From the NCBI GenBank assembly GCA_035537555.1, contig DATLMR010000420.1, positions 1-50,501 on the forward strand: a stretch of DNA of 50,501 bases, read 5' to 3'. Shown here piece after piece: positions 9,466 to 47,897 of the stretch; positions within the stretch are counted from its first letter, which is position 1; each line of letters starts with the position of its first letter. The translations under genes and the position numbers were made by a program. The DNA comes from Blastocatellia bacterium. Lineage in GTDB: Bacteria; Acidobacteriota; Blastocatellia; UBA7656. The notes beneath the pieces are model-generated. The model was not told where the DNA came from. It ran no database searches and was given only the letters and a program-made list of their open reading frames with translations.

Positions 9466-10956
9466 CTACTGCTGGGGCGGCGCGGCCTCTTCCTGAGGCG
9501 GAGGCGGCTGGCCGGCTCCGCCGGGAACTCCCTGAAGGCCGGGCATGGCCTGAGGCTCCACGGGCTTGGGATTGATCGTAAAGTCCTCCGCGACCTCGAT
9601 GTTGCTGGCGGCGGTGATCTCTTCGATGCGCTTTTCGAGCTTCTCTTTCTTCAGCTTGTCGGTGATCGTCTGCTTTATGCGCTCCTCGGTGACCGGGGCC
9701 GTGCGCTTGTCTTCCACCTTGATGATGTGATACCCGAAATCGCTCTCGACGACTCCGCTCACCTCGCCGGGCTTGAGAGCAAAAGCCGCCTGCTCGAACT
9801 GGGGAACCATCATACCCTTGCCGAAGTACTTGCTGGAATCGGACCCGCTCTCGTCCATCGCGACCAGGCCGCCTTCCGCCTTCGAGCCGGTGTCATCGGA
9901 AAGCTGCTTGGCGAGAGCGGCGAAGTCTTCTCCCTTGCGAATCCGCTCAAGGGTCGCCTCGGCCTTCTTGCGCGCTTCATCTTTGCTCATGCCCTTCGGC
10001 GCCGGCGCGCCCTCTGGCCCGGGTCCGCCGGGAGTCGTGCTGAAGAGTATGTGGCGCGCGCGCACTTCCTCGAACTCTCCCTTGTGCTCATTATAATAGG
10101 CGTTCACATCGGCGTCGGTGACCAGGGTAGGCGAGTTCTGCTGGTCCTTCATATAAGCCTGGAACAAGGCCTGGCTCCGGCCGATGAGCATCTTGAGCTT
10201 GACGCCTTCGTCCAGGTCGAGCTTATCGGCGCGGGCGCGCTCGGAGATGACTTTGATCTGGCCGAACTCCTTCTTCATCTGCTCGAGCGCCGGTCCCTGC
10301 GCCTGCGCCTTGAACTGGGGCTCGGAGTCGAGGAGCTGGTTGAACTCGTTAGGATGGGCCTGGAGGTATGTGTTCACTTCTTCGTCGCTAACCTTCAAGC
10401 CGGGGTTCTTCTTCTCGTACGCCTCGCGGAGCGCGAGATCGCTTTGAATCGCGATCTTCGACTGAACGTCCGGCTTGGCCGCGTACCCTTCCTTCTCGGC
10501 CTGCTGTGCGACGGCGAGTATCTGCTTGAGGGTCTTCACGAGGGTCTTTTTCTGCTCGGGGTTACTGGCGAGTTGCTGCTGCTGCATGGGCGGGAGCAGC
10601 TCGCTCACGAGAAACTCCATCTTCTTGGCGTCGAATTTTACATTGCCCAGCTCGCCTCCCCGGCCCATCGGCGACATCTGTGCCCAAATCATGGTGCCAG
10701 CGAGGGCCAGGACCACGAGTATGGCGGCGATTACTTTGCCCGAGACGCCCGACTTCTTCCTGGGCGCATAGGAAGCCGCGGCTGTCGCGGGTGCGCTCGC
10801 GGCTGGAGCCTCGGGCTCGTCCGCGGCCGAGTCATCCGCTACGACCCTGGGCGAATCGTCGCCCGACAGGGGCGTGGTGTCGAGAGATTCGGGCCCTTCC
10901 GCCCCCTCCGTCTCTATCTTGTCTTTTATATCGTCGTCATTGCTTGAATTAACCAT
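9466..10956 (-). CDS. Membrane-anchored parvulin-type peptidyl-prolyl isomerase (SurA/PpiD-like chaperone)
   Basis: One TM helix (VIAAILVVLALAGTMIW), a long helical chaperone region, the PpiC domain (ARHILF ... FGYHIIKVEDKR) and a Pro/Gln-rich tail. Confidence 0.85.
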   Translation of the reverse strand: MVNSSNDDDIKDKIETEGAEGPESLDTTPLSGDDSPRVVADDSAADEPEAPAASAPATAAASYAPRKKSGVSGKVIAAILVVLALAGTMIWAQMSPMGRGGELGNVKFDAKKMEFLVSELLPPMQQQQLASNPEQKKTLVKTLKQILAVAQQAEKEGYAAKPDVQSKIAIQSDLALREAYEKKNPGLKVSDEEVNTYLQAHPNEFNQLLDSEPQFKAQAQGPALEQMKKEFGQIKVISERARADKLDLDEGVKLKMLIGRSQALFQAYMKDQQNSPTLVTDADVNAYYNEHKGEFEEVRARHILFSTTPGGPGPEGAPAPKGMSKDEARKKAEATLERIRKGEDFAALAKQLSDDTGSKAEGGLVAMDESGSDSSKYFGKGMMVPQFEQAAFALKPGEVSGVVESDFGYHIIKVEDKRTAPVTEERIKQTITDKLKKEKLEKRIEEITAASNIEVAEDFTINPKPVEPQAMPGLQGVPGGAGQPPPPQEEAAPPQQ

Positions 10957-10959
10957 TAT

Positions 10960-11391
10960 CTAATCTCCTTCCGATGTTCTCGTCCTCTCAACCAGCTCGA
11001 CGAGAACTCCGTTCGCGCTCGCCGGGTGCAGAAAGGCCACTAACTTTCCCTCAGCGCCGGGCCGCGGATAACCGTCCAGCAGACGGGCTCCGCGCGACCT
11101 GAGTTCCTCTAATTTCGATGAGAGGTCATCGACCTCATAGCAGATATGATGCAGGCCCTCTCCGCGCCTGGCTATGAAACGACCGACAGGCGTATCCGCC
11201 GCAAACGGCTCCAGGAGCTCGATTCGAGACTCTCCGACGGGAAGCAGCGCGACGCTGACTCCCTGGTCCTCGACCCGTTCGGTCCCCGATATCTCGAGGC
11301 CGAGGCCGTCCCGGTAAAAGACTAATGACTCTTCTATCGAGCGGACCGCAATTCCAAGATGATCTATCTTCATAATAGCCGTCACAGGCAA
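10960..11391 (-). CDS. mce: Methylmalonyl-CoA epimerase (VOC/glyoxalase fold)
   Basis: IDHLGIAVRSIEE and EGLHHICYEVDD. The start may instead be the Met at 11373. Confidence 0.85.
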   Translation of the reverse strand: MPVTAIMKIDHLGIAVRSIEESLVFYRDGLGLEISGTERVEDQGVSVALLPVGESRIELLEPFAADTPVGRFIARRGEGLHHICYEVDDLSSKLEELRSRGARLLDGYPRPGAEGKLVAFLHPASANGVLVELVERTRTSEGD

Positions 11392-42982: not shown

Positions 42983-43792
42983 TCATCCGGGGTTTTCAGG
43001 GGAATACTCTTTTATCATCCTCGTCAGGCATCTCTCGATCGCGCGGGCCATCAGCTCTACCAGGGGCCGGGTGTTCATGCGAAATCCCTCGTCGACGGCT
43101 TCCCGGTAAGCGGCGGACAGTTCTCGCGGGATGACTACGGGCGGCAGGCCGCTTCGCAACGTGAAAAGGCTCGCGGCCGCAAAAGAGAGCCCCTCGTTCC
43201 CCTCTTCGAAGGGTTGAATCTCGATCAGGCGGAGATGAACTATGGCTGCCTGCTCCAGAGGATGCATCTCCTCGAATGACCCGGCCGTGAACCATAAACA
43301 CGCGCTCTCGATCATCGCGGGCAGGTACTCGGGAGGCGCGGCGGGCCTGGAGCGGGCGGCCGCGCCCTTCGAATGATCCGCGCGGCCCTTGCGAAACTCT
43401 CCCCGGGCTCCGTCCGGCTTCCGGTCGAAGCTCAAAAGAAGGTCCGGAGTAAGCCTTGCCCTGCGACCCTCGGTTTCGACCTGGGCCAGCACGGCGCGCA
43501 AGGCTCGAAGGAGGCGGAGTATGCCCGCATCCTCCGGGCCATTCCCCTCGGCGGGCCGATCGATCGCCCGGACGGCCTCCTCTACCCGCTCGCGCTCGAC
43601 GTGCGCGCCCGCGAGGGTCAGGGCGGAGAGTATGAAATCGACCTCCAGCCACGGGGCCACCCTTGTCTTTGAATCTCCTGAAGGTTGAACGGAATTGAGT
43701 TCCTCAAGCTTCCGGTTAATCATGTTTATCCATTCATAAGCGGGCCGCGACGATAGTATGGGAGGAAAGGCTAAGTCGGGTGGTCTTTGCAT
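42983..43792 (-). CDS. Fic-fold protein with degenerate active-site motif
   Basis: HPLEQAAIVHLRLIEIQPFEEGNEGLSF. The position of the canonical HxFx(D/E)GNGRxxR motif reads QPFEEGNEGLSF (nt 43181-43216). Confidence 0.65.
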   Translation of the reverse strand: MQRPPDLAFPPILSSRPAYEWINMINRKLEELNSVQPSGDSKTRVAPWLEVDFILSALTLAGAHVERERVEEAVRAIDRPAEGNGPEDAGILRLLRALRAVLAQVETEGRRARLTPDLLLSFDRKPDGARGEFRKGRADHSKGAAARSRPAAPPEYLPAMIESACLWFTAGSFEEMHPLEQAAIVHLRLIEIQPFEEGNEGLSFAAASLFTLRSGLPPVVIPRELSAAYREAVDEGFRMNTRPLVELMARAIERCLTRMIKEYSPENPG

Positions 43793-43969
43793 GGCGCGGT
43801 GATTATATCAGCCGCCGCCGATCAAAGCGACGGCGGCGCGCGGCGCGAAATCTTTAGTTAAGACCCGCGTTCGCTTGACATAGTGGCAGTTCGCACGTGA
43901 CACTTTGATGCTGAATCGAGATAGGCACCGGGAAACCAAAATAGTTATAATCGAGCGGAAGCGGCCTCT

Positions 43970-44803
43970 ATGCGGAATGAGCGGGACATAAGGAAAAAGA
44001 TCGTAGAGATAGGCCGCGAAGTCTACGCGCGCGGCTTCATCGCGGCCTCAGACGGCAATATCAGCGCAAGGCTCGACGACGGCACCATAGTGACCACTCC
44101 GACCATGGTGTGCAAGGGGCGGATGTCTGAGGATATGCTGGTCCTTGTCGATATAGACGGGCGGAAGCTGCGGCGCGAGGAGAGAAACCCCTCTTCGGAG
44201 TTCTCGATGCACCGGACGATCTACCGCCTGCGGCCCGACGTGCACGCGGTGGTGCACGCGCACCCGCCTTTCGGCACCGGCTTCGCCGTGGCGAACGTGC
44301 CGCTCGATAAGCCTCTGCTTTCGGAAGTGATTCTGACCCTCGGATGCATCCCTCTTACCGCTTACGGTACGCCTTCCACGACAGAGATTCCGGACTCCTT
44401 ATCGCCGTACATCCCGCACCACGACGCGCTATTGCTCGCGAACCACGGGGCGGTCGCATACGGGCCGGACCTGCAAGTGGCTTATGACCGGATGGAAACC
44501 CTGGAGCACTTCGCGAAGATCGCCCTGATCGCGCGGCTGGTCGGGAAACCTAAAGAGCTTCCCGCGCAGGCGATCGAAAAGCTGCTCGACGTTCGCGAGC
44601 AGTCCGGCTATATGCCGCCCGAAGCTCGCACCTGCCAGTCTTGCGGATACCTGCAGGGCCACTCTTCGGGCTGTGCCACCGGCCCCGTCCCTCGCGCGCG
44701 CGCGGATGCGAACGGCGATGAAACGGTGACTCTCACTCGAAAGGAATTGACCGCCCTCATCACCGAGGCCGCCCGGCTCGTCGAGCGGGAGAAGAACCGT
44801 TGA
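43970..44803 (+). CDS. Class II (fuculose/rhamnulose-phosphate-type) aldolase with ~65-aa C-terminal extension
   Basis: Zn ligand pattern HAVVHAHPP plus LLANHGAV, and catalytic-acid region SSEFSMH. The core ends near aa 210, followed by a Cys cluster (CQSCGYLQGHSSGC) and a terminal helix LTRKELTALITEAARLVERE. Confidence 0.85.
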   Translation: MRNERDIRKKIVEIGREVYARGFIAASDGNISARLDDGTIVTTPTMVCKGRMSEDMLVLVDIDGRKLRREERNPSSEFSMHRTIYRLRPDVHAVVHAHPPFGTGFAVANVPLDKPLLSEVILTLGCIPLTAYGTPSTTEIPDSLSPYIPHHDALLLANHGAVAYGPDLQVAYDRMETLEHFAKIALIARLVGKPKELPAQAIEKLLDVREQSGYMPPEARTCQSCGYLQGHSSGCATGPVPRARADANGDETVTLTRKELTALITEAARLVEREKNR

Positions 44804-44899
44804 GATAGACGACTCAGAAGAAGCGCGCGGTCGCCGCCGCCTTGTTACCTCAGTATGGCGGCCCTGATCGATTGCGCTTGAAATGTAAAAGGAGAAGCT

Positions 44900-45187
44900 A
44901 TGGAAGCCCTTGGAATGATCGAGACGAAAGGTCTCGTCGCTATGATCGAAGCAGCGGACGCGATGGTCAAGGCTGCGAACGTTACGCTGATCGGCTACGA
45001 GAAGATCGGGGCCGGACTCGTGACCGCAATCGTGCGCGGGGATGTCGCCGCGGTCAAAGCGGCCACCGACGCGGGCGCGGCGGCCGCCCGCCGCGTGGGA
45101 GAGCTCGTGAGCGTGCACGTGATCCCGCGCCCTCACACCTCTGTCAATGAGAGCATGCCCGTTACCTACGAATCGCGAGAGAAATAG
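44900..45187 (+). CDS. Bacterial microcompartment shell hexamer protein (BMC-H, PduA/EutM/CcmK family)
   Basis: [27 protein letters not shown] ... [20 protein letters not shown] is the canonical BMC domain. AAGGAG SD 6 nt upstream. Confidence 0.95.
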
Positions 45188-45250
45188 CAGACGGGGAGGG
45201 AAGCCGCGGGCCCTCCCGGCATGCGCCTTCTCCTCGGGCCTGAAACGCTT

Positions 45251-45520
45251 ATGATTCTTGCACGAATAGTAGGAACCGTAGTGGCCACGCGGAAGGATGA
45301 GCGCCTTCACGGGCGCAAGCTCCTGATCGCGCGCATGATCGACGTGGAGGGCGAGGATGAAAAGGGACACCTCATCGCCGTCGATACCGTCGGCGCGGGA
45401 GTCCAGGAAGTAGTGCTCATCGTCCAGGGAAGCTCCGCGCGACTGGCCTTTGGCTGTAAGGACTGCCCGATTGACGCCGCGGTCGTCGGCATCGTCGATA
45501 CGGTCGAGGTGAGCCCTTAG
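45251..45520 (+). CDS. Bacterial microcompartment vertex pentamer protein (BMC-P, EutN/CcmL family)
   Basis: MILARIVGTVVATRKDE ... AVDTVGAGVQEVVLIVQGSSAR ... DAAVVGIVD is typical EutN/CcmL. The start is placed at the family-typical Met; the ORF is open from 45221. Confidence 0.9.
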   Translation: MILARIVGTVVATRKDERLHGRKLLIARMIDVEGEDEKGHLIAVDTVGAGVQEVVLIVQGSSARLAFGCKDCPIDAAVVGIVDTVEVSP

Positions 45521-45590: not shown

Positions 45591-47342
45591 TTGAATAGTC
45601 CTATGAACACCATCCGAGTAGCGCTCGCGCAGATCAACGTGACGGTCGGCGACATCACGAACAACACCGGCCGCGTGCTGGATTACCTTAAGAGAGCCCG
45701 CGCGACCGGAGCCGACATCATCGCCTTCCCCGAGCTGGTCCTCACCGGGTACCCGCCCGAAGACCTCCTGCTTCGCCCGCATTTCGTGCGCGAGAATCGC
45801 CGCGCTCTGGACCGCGTGGTCGAGGCCGCCGGTGATGAGATAATCATCATCGGCTTCGTGGACAATGACGGGTCTGATATTTACAATGCCGCGGCAGTGA
45901 TCGCGGGCGGAAAGCTCGCGGACATATATCACAAGACCTTCCTGCCTAACTACGGAGTCTTCGACGAGGAGAGATATTTTCAGTCCGGGAGCCGATGCCC
46001 GGTATTCTCGCTTGGAGAAGCGCGGGTCGGAATCAACGTCTGCGAGGACATCTGGTACCCGGGCGGCCCGACGAAGCTGCAAGCCCTCGTGGGCGACGCG
46101 CACCTGATCGTGAATATATCTTCATCGCCCTTCCACGCGGGCAAGCGGTATGACCGCGAACGGATGCTTTGCACCAGGGCCGAAGACAACGCGGTGGCGC
46201 TCGCCTACTGCAACCTCGTGGGCGGCCAGGACGAGCTGGTCTTTGACGGCAACAGCCTGGTAATCGACGAGGCCGGGCGCGTGATCGCCAGAGGGCTCGC
46301 TTTCACGGAAGACCTGCTGGTCGCCGACATTAACGTGGAGCAGGTCTTTTCCGAAAGATTGCACGACCCGCGCCGTCGCCGCGAAAAATTGAGGATCACT
46401 CCCGACGACGCGCTCTATACGTACAGCCTTGACAGGCCTTCGTCCTCATCCGACCCGAGGCGGCAGCTCGCCCGGCGGATTGAAGAGCCTCCGGACGAAC
46501 TGGGAGAAGTCTACTTCGCCCTCGTCCTCGGCCTCCGCGATTATGTTCGGAAGAACGGCTTCGACAAGATATTCATCGGGCTTTCGGGGGGGATAGATTC
46601 GGCCCTGACGGCGGTGATTGCGGCCGACGCCATCGGGCCTGAGAACGTGAGAACGGTCTTCATGCCGACGCGCTATTCATCGAGCGAAAGCGCCCGCGAC
46701 GCGCGGCTACTGGCGGAGAACCTCGGCCTGCATTATCAGGTGATCTCCATCGAAGATACATTCGGGTGCTACCGCAAGATGCTCGCGCCGGTCTTCGAAG
46801 GGCTGCCCGAGGACGTGACCGAAGAGAACCTGCAGGCGCGCATCCGCGGCAATATCCTGATGGCGCTCTCGAACAAGTTTAATGGGCTCGTGATCTCGAC
46901 CGGCAACAAGAGCGAGATGAGCGTGGGATATTCGACGCTTTATGGAGACATGGTGGGCGGCTTCGCTATCTTGAAGGACGTTCCCAAGACGCTCGTCTAC
47001 CGCCTGTCGGAGTACGTTAACCGGCGCGGGCCGAGGCCAATCATCCCCGAATACATCATCACGCGCGCCCCGTCCGCCGAGCTGCGCCCCGACCAGACGG
47101 ACCAGGATACCCTGCCTCCGTACGACGTCCTCGACGCGATCCTCGAAGCCTACATAGAGAGAGATATGAGCGTCGAATCGATCGTCGCGCTCGGCTTCGC
47201 GCCCGAGGTCGTCCGCTGGGTCATCAACCGCGTCGACGCGTCCGAGTACAAGAGAAGGCAATCCCCTCCCGGCATAAAGATAACTCCCCGCGCGTTCGGC
47301 AGGGACCGGCGCATGCCGATTACGAGCAAGTACCGCGATTGA
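45591..47342 (+). CDS. nadE: Glutamine-dependent NAD+ synthetase
   Basis: N-terminal CN-hydrolase domain (IAFPEL, YHKTFLPNYGVFDE, GINVCEDIW) and a C-terminal synthetase domain with P-loop GLSGGIDSAL. The start may be 45603. Confidence 0.95.
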   Translation: MNSPMNTIRVALAQINVTVGDITNNTGRVLDYLKRARATGADIIAFPELVLTGYPPEDLLLRPHFVRENRRALDRVVEAAGDEIIIIGFVDNDGSDIYNAAAVIAGGKLADIYHKTFLPNYGVFDEERYFQSGSRCPVFSLGEARVGINVCEDIWYPGGPTKLQALVGDAHLIVNISSSPFHAGKRYDRERMLCTRAEDNAVALAYCNLVGGQDELVFDGNSLVIDEAGRVIARGLAFTEDLLVADINVEQVFSERLHDPRRRREKLRITPDDALYTYSLDRPSSSSDPRRQLARRIEEPPDELGEVYFALVLGLRDYVRKNGFDKIFIGLSGGIDSALTAVIAADAIGPENVRTVFMPTRYSSSESARDARLLAENLGLHYQVISIEDTFGCYRKMLAPVFEGLPEDVTEENLQARIRGNILMALSNKFNGLVISTGNKSEMSVGYSTLYGDMVGGFAILKDVPKTLVYRLSEYVNRRGPRPIIPEYIITRAPSAELRPDQTDQDTLPPYDVLDAILEAYIERDMSVESIVALGFAPEVVRWVINRVDASEYKRRQSPPGIKITPRAFGRDRRMPITSKYRD

Positions 47343-47438: not shown

Positions 47439-47897
47439 TTACTTCTCCACGATGTCCGGCTTGAGAGTCATGAGCGCGGCGGCAAGGTCCTGTTGCTCTT
47501 TCTCGCCGACCTTGAATTTGGTCAGGGTGGCGACCAGGTGCTTGACGGCAGTGTCCCAATCCTCCTCGGTGATCCCCATGCCTTTGTGAGAGGTCTTCAT
47601 ATCGCGCCCGATGTATGCGCAGGGGCCTCCGGTGGCCGCGCACAATTGATCTTTGACGAGCTGGGCCACGCGCCCTTTTGAATTGTCGCTCAGGCCGACG
47701 AAGAACCTCCCGAGCTTCTTATCCGCTGCCAGGCGTCCGATGAAGTCATCGGTCACCGCCGCGATCGCATCATATCCTCCAAGTCTTTTGTAGAGACTAT
47801 TGCCGTCGCTCTGAGCGGAGACCGAGGTCCCTGTCCCCGCAAGGGCCGCCGTCAGTGCCAGGGCCATCAACCCGTTGAGCAGAATATTCTTCTTCAC
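47439..47897 (-). CDS. glbN: Group-1 truncated haemoglobin with N-terminal signal peptide
   Basis: GTG start 7 nt after AAGGAGG. Signal peptide MKKNILLNGLMALALTAALAGTGTSVSAQ, trHbN pattern LYKRLGGYDAIAAVTDDF...FF, and a proximal-His region MKTSHKGMGIT. Confidence 0.8.
   Translation of the reverse strand: MKKNILLNGLMALALTAALAGTGTSVSAQSDGNSLYKRLGGYDAIAAVTDDFIGRLAADKKLGRFFVGLSDNSKGRVAQLVKDQLCAATGGPCAYIGRDMKTSHKGMGITEEDWDTAVKHLVATLTKFKVGEKEQQDLAAALMTLKPDIVEK

Follow-up and report, generated by a model that had tools for sequence, protein, structure and literature searches.

A three-gene locus of Blastocatellia that resembles a reduced, conserved form of the ACI microcompartment core

An aldolase gene is followed by one hexamer and one pentamer shell gene

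The DNA analysed, referred to as the window, is a stretch of 50,501 nt from a Blastocatellia bacterium (contig DATLMR010000420.1). Positions 43970-45520 of its plus strand contain the genes for a class II aldolase, one bacterial microcompartment hexamer protein (BMC-H) and one pentamer protein (BMC-P; Table 1). An earlier, sequence-only reading of this DNA had placed three plus-strand genes here, and both the open reading frames and the Pfam matches agree with it; the Pfam scores of all three genes far exceed the curated cut-offs. The BMC-P start at 45221, in contrast, had to be corrected to the conserved ATG at 45251, which is the one used in the orthologues and yields a protein of 89 aa (‘MILARIVG...’). 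The flanking genes had been named correctly, with a Fic-domain gene upstream on the minus strand and nadE downstream, but the distance to nadE is not the 70 nt given at the time: the conserved nadE start, the ATG at 45603 (MNTIRVALAQ), lies 82 nt past the BMC-P stop codon.

When essentially all the large open reading frames of the 50 kb window were compared with Pfam, no aldehyde dehydrogenase (AldDh, PF00171), phosphotransacylase (PTAC, PF06130), iron-type alcohol dehydrogenase (PF00465) or acetate kinase (PF00871) was found, and a phmmer search detected no second shell gene in the window; the sequence-only reading had reported the same absences. An Rfam scan of the cluster returned nothing meaningful.

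Table 1. Position of the genes, protein segments and conserved upstream element of the locus
Feature	Coordinates	Strand	Description
Fic-domain gene	42983-43792	-	upstream flank of aldolase
Conserved upstream element GCTTGACA-N13-CACGTGACACTTTGA	43873-43908	+	-35-like TTGACA at 43875-43880
Class II aldolase CDS	43970-44803	+	277 aa; Aldolase_II PF00596, E 4.6e-47, 160.7 bits vs cut-off 22.2
Aldolase/adducin-fold catalytic domain, residues 1-212	43970-44605	+	PF00596 over residues 10-186
Flexible Cys-rich linker, residues 213-252	44606-44725	+	C222-x-x-C225, H231, C235
C-terminal encapsulation peptide, residues 253-277, VTLTRKELTALITEAARLVEREKNR	44726-44800	+	amphipathic helix
BMC-H hexamer shell protein	44900-45187	+	95 aa; BMC PF00936, 3.2e-31
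BMC-P pentamer (vertex) protein	45251-45520	+	89 aa; longest ORF from 45221; EutN_CcmL PF03319, 3.1e-30
Glutamine-dependent NAD+ synthase nadE	45603-47342	+	NCBIfam NF010588, 735 bits vs cut-off 479

The aldolase retains its active-site residues and ends in a putative encapsulation peptide

The domain match, together with a histidine triad and a glutamate, makes the enzyme a member of PF00596, the class II aldolase/adducin superfamily. In an alignment of 14 family members, four residues were invariant: Glu77, which is catalytic, and the Zn ligands His96, His98 and His159. The ligand histidines are intact, as had been claimed. We take these four residues to be the counterparts of Glu73, His92, His94 and His155 of FucA. 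The nearest solved structures are 6VOQ and 6VOP, both entered as ‘Aldolase’ (99 and 93 bits), with the fuculose-1-phosphate aldolases behind them (69-87 bits). All matches to NCBIfam equivalog models fell far under the respective cut-offs. The best was that to OtnC, a 3-oxo-tetronate 4-phosphate decarboxylase (NF043034; 134.4 bits, cut-off 250), and the L-fuculose-phosphate aldolase models scored 102.8 (NF005302; cut-off 264), 94.2 (NF004527; cut-off 308) and 73.6 bits (TIGR01086; cut-off 400.25). Since the best family matches are the OtnC model and the unnamed 6VOQ/6VOP, all below cut-offs, an aldehyde-producing aldolase chemistry is not established for this enzyme.

The catalytic domain is followed by a linker whose sequence is poorly conserved except for a CxxCGY motif; in the aldolase of one related locus (L036) a tandem-repeat insertion lies at the linker position. 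The AF2 model of the aldolase, which has a low overall confidence (mean pLDDT 58.5), gave pLDDT values below 50 at residues 222-255 and a helix at residues 257-276. The helical hydrophobic moment of the C-terminal peptide (0.53) ranked third among 260 windows. Residues T254, L255, E259, L260, L263, I264, E266, A267 and A268 were invariant in 35 orthologues, and the motif is also present in the aldolases of canonical ACI loci (see below). The prediction is that this C-terminal helix tethers the aldolase to the shell lumen. A search for other cargo with the peptide alone, a query that proved to have no power, produced five weak matches only, two to short fragments and three to very long proteins.

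The BMC-H gene is preceded by a strong Shine-Dalgarno sequence (AAAGGAG). In alignments its product belongs to the basal type: both interface motifs, KAAN and PRPH, are present, and the pore loop reads G-A-G. Against the NCBIfam EutM equivalog model it scores 145.7 bits, above the cut-off of 133, and PduA, EutM and HO-5815 are close structural relatives, 6QN1 and 7CKB/7CKC being also listed. The protein is 88-100% identical across 36 species, and its exact sequence was found on eight contigs, in the same context every time. The nearest structures to BMC-P are CcmL and the HO BMC-P.

The locus corresponds to the start of the ACI main locus

The sequence-only reading mentioned existing catalogues of acidobacterial BMC loci, and correctly so: the catalogue of Sutter et al. 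(2021, Nat Commun 12:3809, PMC8217296) includes a type named ACI, restricted to Acidobacteria and present mainly in subdivisions 4 and 6. The ACI main locus opens with a PF00596 aldolase whose C-terminus bears an encapsulation peptide; a basal BMC-H comes next, and after it a triplet of BMC-P genes of the green, grey and orange clades that are ‘almost always’ contiguous. It also contains a 2-hydroxyacid dehydrogenase (PF00389/PF02826) and three proteins without known homologues, including a Cys protein of ∼80 aa with an N-terminal encapsulation peptide. The ACI AldDh, with an encapsulation peptide near its C-terminus, is always on a satellite locus, which was reported in most ACI genomes, and ACI is always the sole BMC locus type of its genome (PMC8217296 for all of these).

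Comparison with this catalogue, as the earlier reading had proposed, showed that the locus matches the ACI main locus over its three leading genes. Blastocatellia belongs to Acidobacteriota as one of its classes, and the locus, from subdivision 4, shares with ACI the leading aldolase carrying an encapsulation peptide, the basal BMC-H with its KAAN and PRPH motifs and PF00936 match, a BMC-P of the ‘kiwi’ clade and the lack of an AldDh gene. Its aldolase also belongs to the ACI lineage, that of the window clade being sister to a canonical ACI aldolase. It differs from ACI in having one BMC-P gene rather than the defining triplet, and in lacking the 2-hydroxyacid dehydrogenase and the three ACI-specific proteins, both at the locus and within 10 kb. 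Further differences are the presence of nadE directly downstream, probably on the same transcript, and a conserved upstream element specific to the clade. No such reduced sub-form is described in the text of Sutter et al. (PMC8217296). The sequence-only reading had missed that, throughout the clade, the locus has lost two BMC-P genes out of three together with every accessory enzyme.

That reading had instead regarded the absence of an AldDh gene as the anomaly. The absence is normal, because the ACI AldDh always lies on a separate locus; it is a property of all ACI loci and was also seen in the canonical loci that we retrieved, which have no AldDh gene within 10 kb.

The single BMC-P is 64% identical to the first BMC-P (P1) of the canonical locus L041, versus 44-45% identical to its P2 and P3, and by this measure it is orthologous to the protein at triplet position 1. 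In the catalogue, the orthologous BMC-P of Blastocatellia AA13 (DMF61_20160, 92 aa) is placed in the ‘kiwi’ clade and typed ‘ACI (main)’ (PMC8217296), so that the catalogue's own pipeline assigned a member of this clade to ACI. The AA13 locus (L037; assembly QHVH01) is of the reduced layout, its BMC-P is also 92 aa long, and the equal length and shared genome suggest that its BMC-P and the catalogue leaf are the same protein. The green clade, which includes ‘kiwi’, appears to be counted among the frequent suppliers of a sole pentamer (PMC8217296), and within that clade the canonical genomes likewise show one leaf. In terms of sequence, the locus is a reduced, conserved form of the core of the known ACI main locus, not a new kind of system.

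This bears on the two explanations offered by the sequence-only reading, namely a satellite locus or a minimal aldolase-only compartment. Satellite loci with shell proteins and enzymes are common in BMC biology (PMC8217296), and the three genes could in principle be additional paralogous copies that modify a larger compartment encoded by a complete canonical BMC operon elsewhere. Their relation to the aldolase, basal BMC-H and P1 of the main locus is, however, one of orthology rather than paralogy, and no second ACI-type aldolase from the 36 assemblies that contain the locus (see below) appeared among the best 80 of 304 relatives (identity down to 39%). In addition, ACI is always the sole BMC locus type, and the catalogue labels the BMC-P of this clade ‘main’ (PMC8217296). 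A satellite role is thus highly improbable, while the minimal compartment, discussed further on, keeps some probability.

The reduction is derived, shared by a whole clade and maintained by selection

The aldolase, BMC-H, BMC-P, nadE layout, in synteny with HAMP, SH3, Fic and globin genes, was found in the genomes of 36 Blastocatellia species. These are GTDB species representatives, mostly labelled Blastocatellia or Acidobacteriota; four are labelled ‘uncultured Clostridia’, apparently wrongly. The same layout was present on 14 metagenome contigs of sufficient length. Sequences carrying the reduced locus include ERZ25039530 contig_540 (7.92 Mb), contigs of CAVSKO01 (3.25 Mb) and CAVXWP01 (1.31 Mb), and the assemblies GCA_036277095.1, GCA_049590935.1 and GCA_035634255.1 (DASQDI01; aldolase 94% identical). 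In the closest relative the aldolase is 94% identical and BMC-H is identical. Each of the 64 reduced-clade loci covering the region contained exactly one BMC-P gene, whereas the canonical order, with three BMC-P genes after aldolase and BMC-H, was observed in L041, L043, L069, L072, L076, L077, L080 and L082. In an NJ tree of the aldolases, the deeper nodes of which lack resolution, the single-BMC-P loci formed a monophyletic clade (100/100) whose sister was L041 (95/100), a Pyrinomonadaceae locus with the triplet. Because its sister bears the triplet, the single-BMC-P state is derived.

The 2-hydroxyacid dehydrogenase gene, present in the canonical loci L043, L069, L076 and L082, was absent from the 50 kb window and from all the reduced-clade flanks (∼0.94 Mb). 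Neither the window nor these flanks contained homologues of the accessory open reading frames of canonical loci, the presumed counterparts of the ACI-specific proteins, and no AldDh or second shell gene was found in the flanks. A relic or relocated copy was found neither within 10 kb in 93 loci nor in the 44 kb upstream in the window. The L036 locus was considered as an evolutionary intermediate, but it contains unrelated genes and no relics of P2 or P3. The additional DNA found between the Fic and aldolase genes of some species was likewise rejected as a P2/P3 remnant, as it holds unrelated genes only.

The locus might be fragmented rather than reduced: P2, P3, the 2-hydroxyacid dehydrogenase, the ACI-specific proteins and the AldDh would then have moved to other loci, leaving an ACI system of normal composition. 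Many BMC types are split over up to six loci, the HO type I BMC-P triplet is divided between loci (PMC8217296), and aldolases with encapsulation peptides do occur as isolated genes. The ACI triplet is nevertheless ‘almost always’ contiguous (PMC8217296), and the searches just described revealed no relic or relocated copy. Among the matches listed for two P3 queries no contig agreed in length with one of the reduced clade, which counts weakly against relocation, both lists being filled by other lineages: those for the L041 P3 were from Pyrinomonadaceae, at least 84% identical, and those for the L043 P3 were of Vicinamibacteria type, 60-74% identical, so that an orthologue of ∼50% identity lay beyond the reach of either query. 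We consider fragmentation unlikely, though by no means negligible.

The three BMC genes are under strong purifying selection. Their dN/dS ratios were 0.020 (BMC-H), 0.055 (BMC-P) and 0.078 (aldolase, median), compared with 0.093 for nadE. The loss of most of the canonical gene set from the locus could point to a decaying ACI remnant without current function. Against this, the reading frames are intact in 36 species, the dN/dS values (0.02-0.08) are the same as or under that of the neighbouring housekeeping gene nadE, the catalytic and targeting residues are invariant, and the upstream element is conserved. The selection analysis effectively refutes decay, to which we assign next to no probability.

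A conserved element precedes the aldolase gene, and nadE probably belongs to the same transcript

An alignment of 14 orthologous upstream regions revealed a nearly invariant element amid variable surrounding DNA (Table 1). There is one such element per locus, upstream of the aldolase only, and it is probably the promoter/operator of the operon. In a scan of metagenome sequences, it lay directly 5′ of the aldolase in 40 of the 41 informative matches. The only other match (L118, 5′ of uvrB, with a CACGTGRCAC repeat) was at chance level and was rejected as a regulon member. Since the scan found the element before no other operon, it indicates no co-regulated partner. A sigma-70-like site at 43922-43951, suggested by a consensus scan, lacks conservation in the upstream alignment and was for that reason discounted as the promoter.

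The NF010588 profile is covered end to end by nadE. In 31 species the BMC-P to nadE gap had a median of 62 nt and a minimum of 3 nt, as tight as the spacing within the BMC cluster, and no terminator-like site was found between the two genes. The nadE gene is probably co-transcribed with the BMC genes; its product has no targeting extension and is not a BMC component.

Comparison with other microcompartments

The PVM compartments, metabolosomes for fucose and rhamnose, also enclose a class II aldolase of PF00596, which is their signature enzyme and generates the aldehyde. They provide the working model for the window aldolase. PVM loci carry AldDh, PTAC, acetate kinase and further shell proteins within the same locus. 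The window lacks the first three and comes from Acidobacteriota, whereas PVM occurs in other phyla (Planctomycetes/Verrucomicrobia); moreover, the window enzyme reaches no fuculose- or rhamnulose-phosphate aldolase cut-off. PVM is a distant analogue only.

The MIC4, MUF2 and HO types are similar in having related aldolases (38-45% identity) with an amphipathic C-terminal extension, adjoined by BMC-P triplets. They differ in their several BMC-H paralogues plus BMC-T proteins, and in their hosts, which belong to Ignavibacteriota, Bacteroidota, Actinomycetota and Myxococcota. Locus L060 is from Actinomycetota. The MIC4-like loci also have a linked AldDh gene, accompanied by PTAC and acetate kinase according to the catalogue (PMC8217296), and their AldDh genes are of another lineage. 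In the wider family, aldolases with encapsulation peptides are often encoded apart from shell genes. The closest aldolases without nearby shell genes are such orphans, and because their neighbours are housekeeping genes they give no hint as to substrate or pathway.

[quoted passage not shown] Our locus resembles them in its very small shell complement with a single pentamer gene, but the shell genes linked here number just two, one for BMC-H and one for BMC-P. Should the rest of the genome add nothing to them, the shell would be simpler than that of any catalogued type. Recombinant BMC-H and BMC-P pairs can close small icosahedral shells; those are laboratory constructs, however. The ‘minimal HO shell’ was rejected as support for the sufficiency of such a pair, because that construct has H, T1 and P.

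The three genes might form the whole organelle, a shell of one hexamer and one pentamer type around the aldolase-family enzyme alone, the genome encoding no AldDh and no further shell protein. The enzyme would then catalyse a reaction that can do without an aldehyde-oxidising partner, such as a condensation or a reaction of the decarboxylase or epimerase type. Consistent with this, other BMC genes were absent from the window and the ∼0.94 Mb of orthologous flanks, the regulatory element is unique to the aldolase operon, the BMC-P belongs to the green ‘kiwi’ clade, apparently often a supplier of the sole pentamer (PMC8217296), among enzyme families a decarboxylase model, not an aldolase, gives the best match, and purifying selection shows the trio to be functional as it stands. 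On the other hand, most ACI genomes have an AldDh satellite, a member of this clade is filed as ACI in the catalogue (PMC8217296), and the frequent dispersal of BMC genes in the wider family means that their absence from the flanks says little. A stand-alone organelle is thus doubtful. Slightly more doubtful still is its fullest form, in which this would be the simplest natural microcompartment known, having abandoned the aldehyde-oxidising core, possibly for a decarboxylase-like or other non-aldehyde chemistry.

A model for the reduced ACI locus

The reading we prefer, at about even chances of being right, is that the locus is the core operon of an ACI compartment in a streamlined form specific to this lineage, served by an unlinked AldDh with an encapsulation peptide encoded elsewhere. 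The ancestor would have had the aldolase, BMC-H and three BMC-P genes, and the Blastocatellia clade would have lost P2, P3, the 2-hydroxyacid dehydrogenase and the ACI-specific proteins from the locus. A promoter/operator at the upstream element would drive expression of the aldolase, BMC-H and BMC-P, with probable read-through into nadE. BMC-H hexamers would tile the facets of the shell, and the single P1-type BMC-P would cap its twelve vertices. The Zn-dependent aldolase-family enzyme would be drawn into the lumen by its amphipathic C-terminal helix, held on the flexible Cys-rich linker, and would most likely cleave a phosphorylated keto-sugar to DHAP and a reactive aldehyde inside the shell. 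The aldehyde would be consumed by the AldDh, as in the ACI systems described. This unlinked dehydrogenase is assumed from the catalogue rather than observed, since none was present in the 50 kb window or the ∼0.94 Mb of flanks.

Among the microcompartment types that are still uncharacterised, ACI is one of the larger, and we found no experimental study of any ACI compartment in the literature. Acidobacteria are among the most abundant soil bacteria. The reduced locus offers a tractable entry to these compartments, consisting of three small genes under selection that occur in dozens of soil species and on many metagenome contigs. It provides a ready minimal set for asking whether a shell closes with a single type each of hexamer and pentamer, and would allow a test of cargo targeting by the conserved C-terminal helix as well as a direct assay of an ACI aldolase-family enzyme. 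It also bears on the role of extra pentamers, as the BMC-P triplet, widespread and unexplained, is dispensable at least at the level of the locus when P1 is kept. If these genomes encode nothing else, this would be the simplest natural microcompartment; if the unlinked dehydrogenase exists, it would be a streamlined version of an ordinary ACI system.

The microcompartment genes and their surroundings

Nearly all large ORFs of the 50.5 kb window were annotated with Pfam. The sequence-only reading had described three consecutive plus-strand microcompartment genes, flanked upstream by a Fic-domain gene on the minus strand and downstream by an NAD+ synthase gene. The ORF listing and Pfam agreed on the trio, and Pfam and NCBIfam on its flanks. 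The gene positions given earlier hold as ORFs, but the starts kept among orthologues differ, lying at 45251 for BMC-P (giving a protein of 89 aa) and at 45603 for NadE. The remaining large ORFs were housekeeping genes (purH, dapF, meaB, an acyl-CoA dehydrogenase gene, a trpS/tyrS-type synthetase gene, scpA/B, mutS, pspA and others). In agreement with that reading, Pfam found no aldehyde dehydrogenase (AldDh, PF00171), phosphotransacylase (PF06130), Fe-alcohol dehydrogenase or acetate kinase among the large ORFs of the window, and phmmer found no second shell gene among all its ORFs of at least 45 aa.

Features of the microcompartment region, in window coordinates
Feature	Position	Strand	Remarks
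Fic-domain gene	42983-43792	minus	upstream of aldolase, divergently transcribed
Conserved upstream element	43873-43908		36 bp, GCTTGACA-N12/13-CACGTGACACTTTGA; 62 nt upstream of aldolase ATG
Class II aldolase	43970-44803	plus	Pfam Aldolase_II PF00596, E 4.6e-47, far over curated cut-off
BMC-H	44900-45187	plus	Pfam BMC PF00936, E 3.2e-31, far over curated cut-off
BMC-P (ORF)	45221-45520	plus	Pfam EutN_CcmL PF03319, E 3.1e-30, far over curated cut-off
nadE, glutamine-dependent NAD+ synthase	45603-47342		downstream of BMC-P; 735 bits vs cut-off 479
Truncated bacterial globin	47439-47897	minus	PF01152; just downstream of nadE

The interface motifs KAAN and PRPH, together with a G-A-G pore loop, are present in BMC-H. 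Among solved structures, BMC-H is closest to PduA, EutM and the Haliangium BMC-H, and BMC-P to CcmL and the Haliangium BMC-P. The active-site motif of the Fic gene is degenerate (QPFEEGNEG in place of HPFx[D/E]GNGR). The globin gene is kept across the Blastocatellia loci with a single BMC-P (the reduced clade), and the N-terminus of its product resembles a signal peptide.

A streamlined variant of the ACI main locus

The Acidobacteria microcompartment type ACI comprises 125 catalogued loci, all from Acidobacteria and chiefly from subdivisions 4 and 6 (Sutter et al. 2021, PMC8217296). The enzymes of its main locus are a PF00596 aldolase that bears an encapsulation peptide (EP) at its C-terminus and a 2-hydroxyacid dehydrogenase; three homologue-less proteins are encoded as well, and the shell genes are a standard BMC-H and a contiguous BMC-P triplet (P1, P2 and P3) (PMC8217296). 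The missing dehydrogenase core, which the sequence-only reading had treated as distinguishing the trio, is a published, general property of ACI main loci (PMC8217296).

Over 120 database clusters matched the window aldolase with an identity of 71% or higher, all of about 277 aa; those bearing an organism name were from Blastocatellia or Acidobacteriota. A one-genome-per-species scan with the aldolase gave 80 loci (the best 80 of 304 relatives), whose gene content was mapped by phmmer. Among these, 36 species representatives showed the exact arrangement of the window (divergent Fic, aldolase, BMC-H, a single BMC-P and nadE), and HAMP, SH3 and globin genes usually lay nearby as they do there. 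Full-length aldolase identity at these single-P loci was at least 72%; the most divergent, L036 from a groundwater acidobacterium, stood at 65% by tblastn best segment. An aldolase, a BMC-H and three BMC-P genes occurred together in L041, a locus from a Pyrinomonadaceae MAG (aldolase 54% identical), and in the acidobacterial loci L043, L069, L072, L076, L077 and L080-L082 (41-47%). Several distant triplet-bearing loci also contained the 2-hydroxyacid dehydrogenase and more conserved unknown ORFs, which is the canonical ACI layout. The canonical ACI main locus has the triplet, the dehydrogenase and the homologue-less proteins; the locus of the reduced clade has a single BMC-P and no accessory genes. 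The trio is the known ACI main locus in a streamlined form shared by the whole clade. One of the 36 loci, from Blastocatellia AA13, has a single BMC-P of 92 aa. The BMC-P tree of the catalogue types an AA13 protein of this length as 'ACI (main)' (PMC8217296), so the catalogue appears to have absorbed the reduced layout into ACI already, with no description of it as a sub-form.

The trio might instead be a satellite of a full canonical operon elsewhere in the genome, an alternative raised by the sequence-only reading. Two observations argue against this: no second ACI-type aldolase locus was recovered from any of the 36 assemblies (among the best 80 of 304 relatives, with identities down to 39% recovered), and a genome with an ACI locus invariably has no other BMC locus type (PMC8217296). 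Protein searches with P3 as the query returned, among the matches listed, other lineages. It is unlikely that this streamlined ACI locus represents the simplest natural microcompartment, with nothing else encoded.

Two side observations concern the loci compared. In L041, the closest canonical ACI locus, a gene for a putative Uma2-family (PF05685) endonuclease is inserted between aldolase and BMC-H (10805-11386). Four loci labelled 'uncultured Clostridia bacterium' (L011, L015, L019 and L023) carry the Blastocatellia-type locus, with aldolases 78-83% identical and, in all but L011, a short contig, HAMP and SH3 genes alongside; the labels of these bins look wrong.

Origin and maintenance of the reduction

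The retained BMC-P is the orthologue of P1: it shares 64% identity with the first BMC-P of the L041 triplet and 44-45% with the second and third. In a neighbour-joining tree of the aldolase catalytic domain (100 bootstraps; deeper nodes unresolved), the single-P loci formed one clade in 100/100 replicates and were sister to L041 in 95/100, with the other triplet-bearing loci outside. This nesting indicates that one pentamer gene is the derived state. Exactly one BMC-P was present in 64/64 reduced-clade loci covering the region. For P2, P3, the 2-hydroxyacid dehydrogenase, the unknown ORFs and a BMC-type AldDh, no homologue was found in the window, nor in ∼0.94 Mb of DNA from 93 reduced-clade loci. 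The extra DNA of L036, and that between Fic and aldolase in one sub-clade, held unrelated genes and no relics of the lost ones.

Median pairwise dN/dS was 0.020 for BMC-H, 0.055 for BMC-P, 0.078 for the aldolase and 0.093 for nadE; these figures are rough, as synonymous sites are saturated (dS ∼1.4-1.8), but their ranking is clear. The exact BMC-H sequence occurred on eight contigs, each time in the same context. The comparative data show a reduction that is real, derived and maintained. The Fic gene, with 34-74% identity and a dN/dS of 0.24, is under far weaker constraint than its neighbours, but its synteny with the aldolase is kept in most species.

The upstream element and the nadE junction

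The upstream element is near-invariant across the reduced clade, within variable surrounding DNA. Among the loci examined it occurs once per locus and is exclusive to the BMC operon, and in JGI metagenome contigs it lay directly upstream of an aldolase gene in 40/41 informative matches. The other match, a simple CACGTG(A/G)CAC direct repeat overlapping TTGACA 25 nt upstream of uvrB on an unrelated contig (L118, 4834-4865), is at chance level and probably coincidental. The spacing of the element departs from that of a textbook sigma-70 -35/-10 pair. Genes for sigma-54-dependent response regulators (Response_reg plus Sigma54_activat) were found near canonical ACI loci (L069, 19547-20752; L077, 12022-13497; L082, 19369-20715) but not near reduced ones, suggesting that regulation changed together with the reduction.

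In 31 species with reduced-clade loci (among L003-L040), BMC-P and nadE lay as close together as the genes within the cluster (median gap 62 nt, minimum 3), and no terminator-like site was found between them in the window. This makes a four-gene transcript including nadE plausible; nadE probably shares a transcript with the shell genes. The NCBIfam profile revealed no terminal extension of NadE. The linkage may be functional, NAD+ being synthesized alongside a compartment possibly dependent on NAD+ recycling, or may merely be inherited synteny.

The aldolase, its C-terminus and its possible chemistry

Alignment with orthologues showed Glu77, His96, His98 and His159 to be kept in the window aldolase. 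The poorly conserved linker following residue 212 holds C222-x-x-C225, H231 and C235 (residues 221-236, window 44630-44677), which may form a metal or redox site; the catalogue remarks that metal binding is possibly relevant in ACI (PMC8217296). Canonical ACI aldolases retain a CxxC (CEGC) in the linker. In L036 (10670-10760) the linker is expanded by a tandem 'NTNA[MT]ASV'-like repeat with the terminal helix conserved, so the linker tolerates large insertions. Nine positions of the segment V253-V271 were invariant in 35 orthologues, and the EP motif L-x-R-x-E-L-x-x-L-[IL]-x-E-[AF]-A-R was also found in most canonical ACI aldolases, more weakly in L043. The AF2 model, poor overall (mean pLDDT 58.5), showed residues 222-255 disordered and a helix at 257-276, the hydrophobic moment of which ranked third of 260 windows. 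As modelled, this C-terminus, a disordered linker and then an amphipathic helix, is the EP architecture described in the catalogue.

All NCBIfam equivalog matches of the aldolase fell far under their cut-offs, the best being 3-oxo-tetronate-4-phosphate decarboxylase (134 bits vs 250), followed by fuculose- and ribulose-phosphate aldolases (∼100 bits). The closest solved structures, ahead of those of FucA, were 6VOQ and 6VOP, labelled only 'Aldolase'. Carbohydrate degradation, proposed for ACI by analogy with PVM and GRM5 (PMC8217296), is adopted as a working model for the window aldolase, although a decarboxylase- or epimerase-type reaction may apply. The gene neighbourhoods of the closest aldolases lacking shell genes nearby gave no clue to substrate or pathway.

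Four EP-tagged aldolase genes (L042, 9869-10771; L044, 93-1013; L047, 9998-10795; L051, 9989-10771) are isolated amid unrelated housekeeping genes, and no shell gene lies within 10 kb of any of them. At their C-termini the products likewise have Cys-rich linkers and amphipathic helices, the linker motif having a four-Cys version in L042 and L051. Identity to the window aldolase was 52-56% over the catalytic domain for L042, L044 and L051, and 45% over the full length for L047. Presumably these genes encode orphan cargo for microcompartments specified at other places in MAGs labelled Deferribacteres, Cytophagia and Bryobacterales. In the wider aldolase family, then, cargo genes are often not linked to shell genes.

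Among the papers searched, none was found linking Blastocatellia with microcompartments, and none with any ACI experiment. Newly reported here are the loss from the locus of two pentamer genes and all accessory enzymes, the nadE junction and the conserved upstream element.
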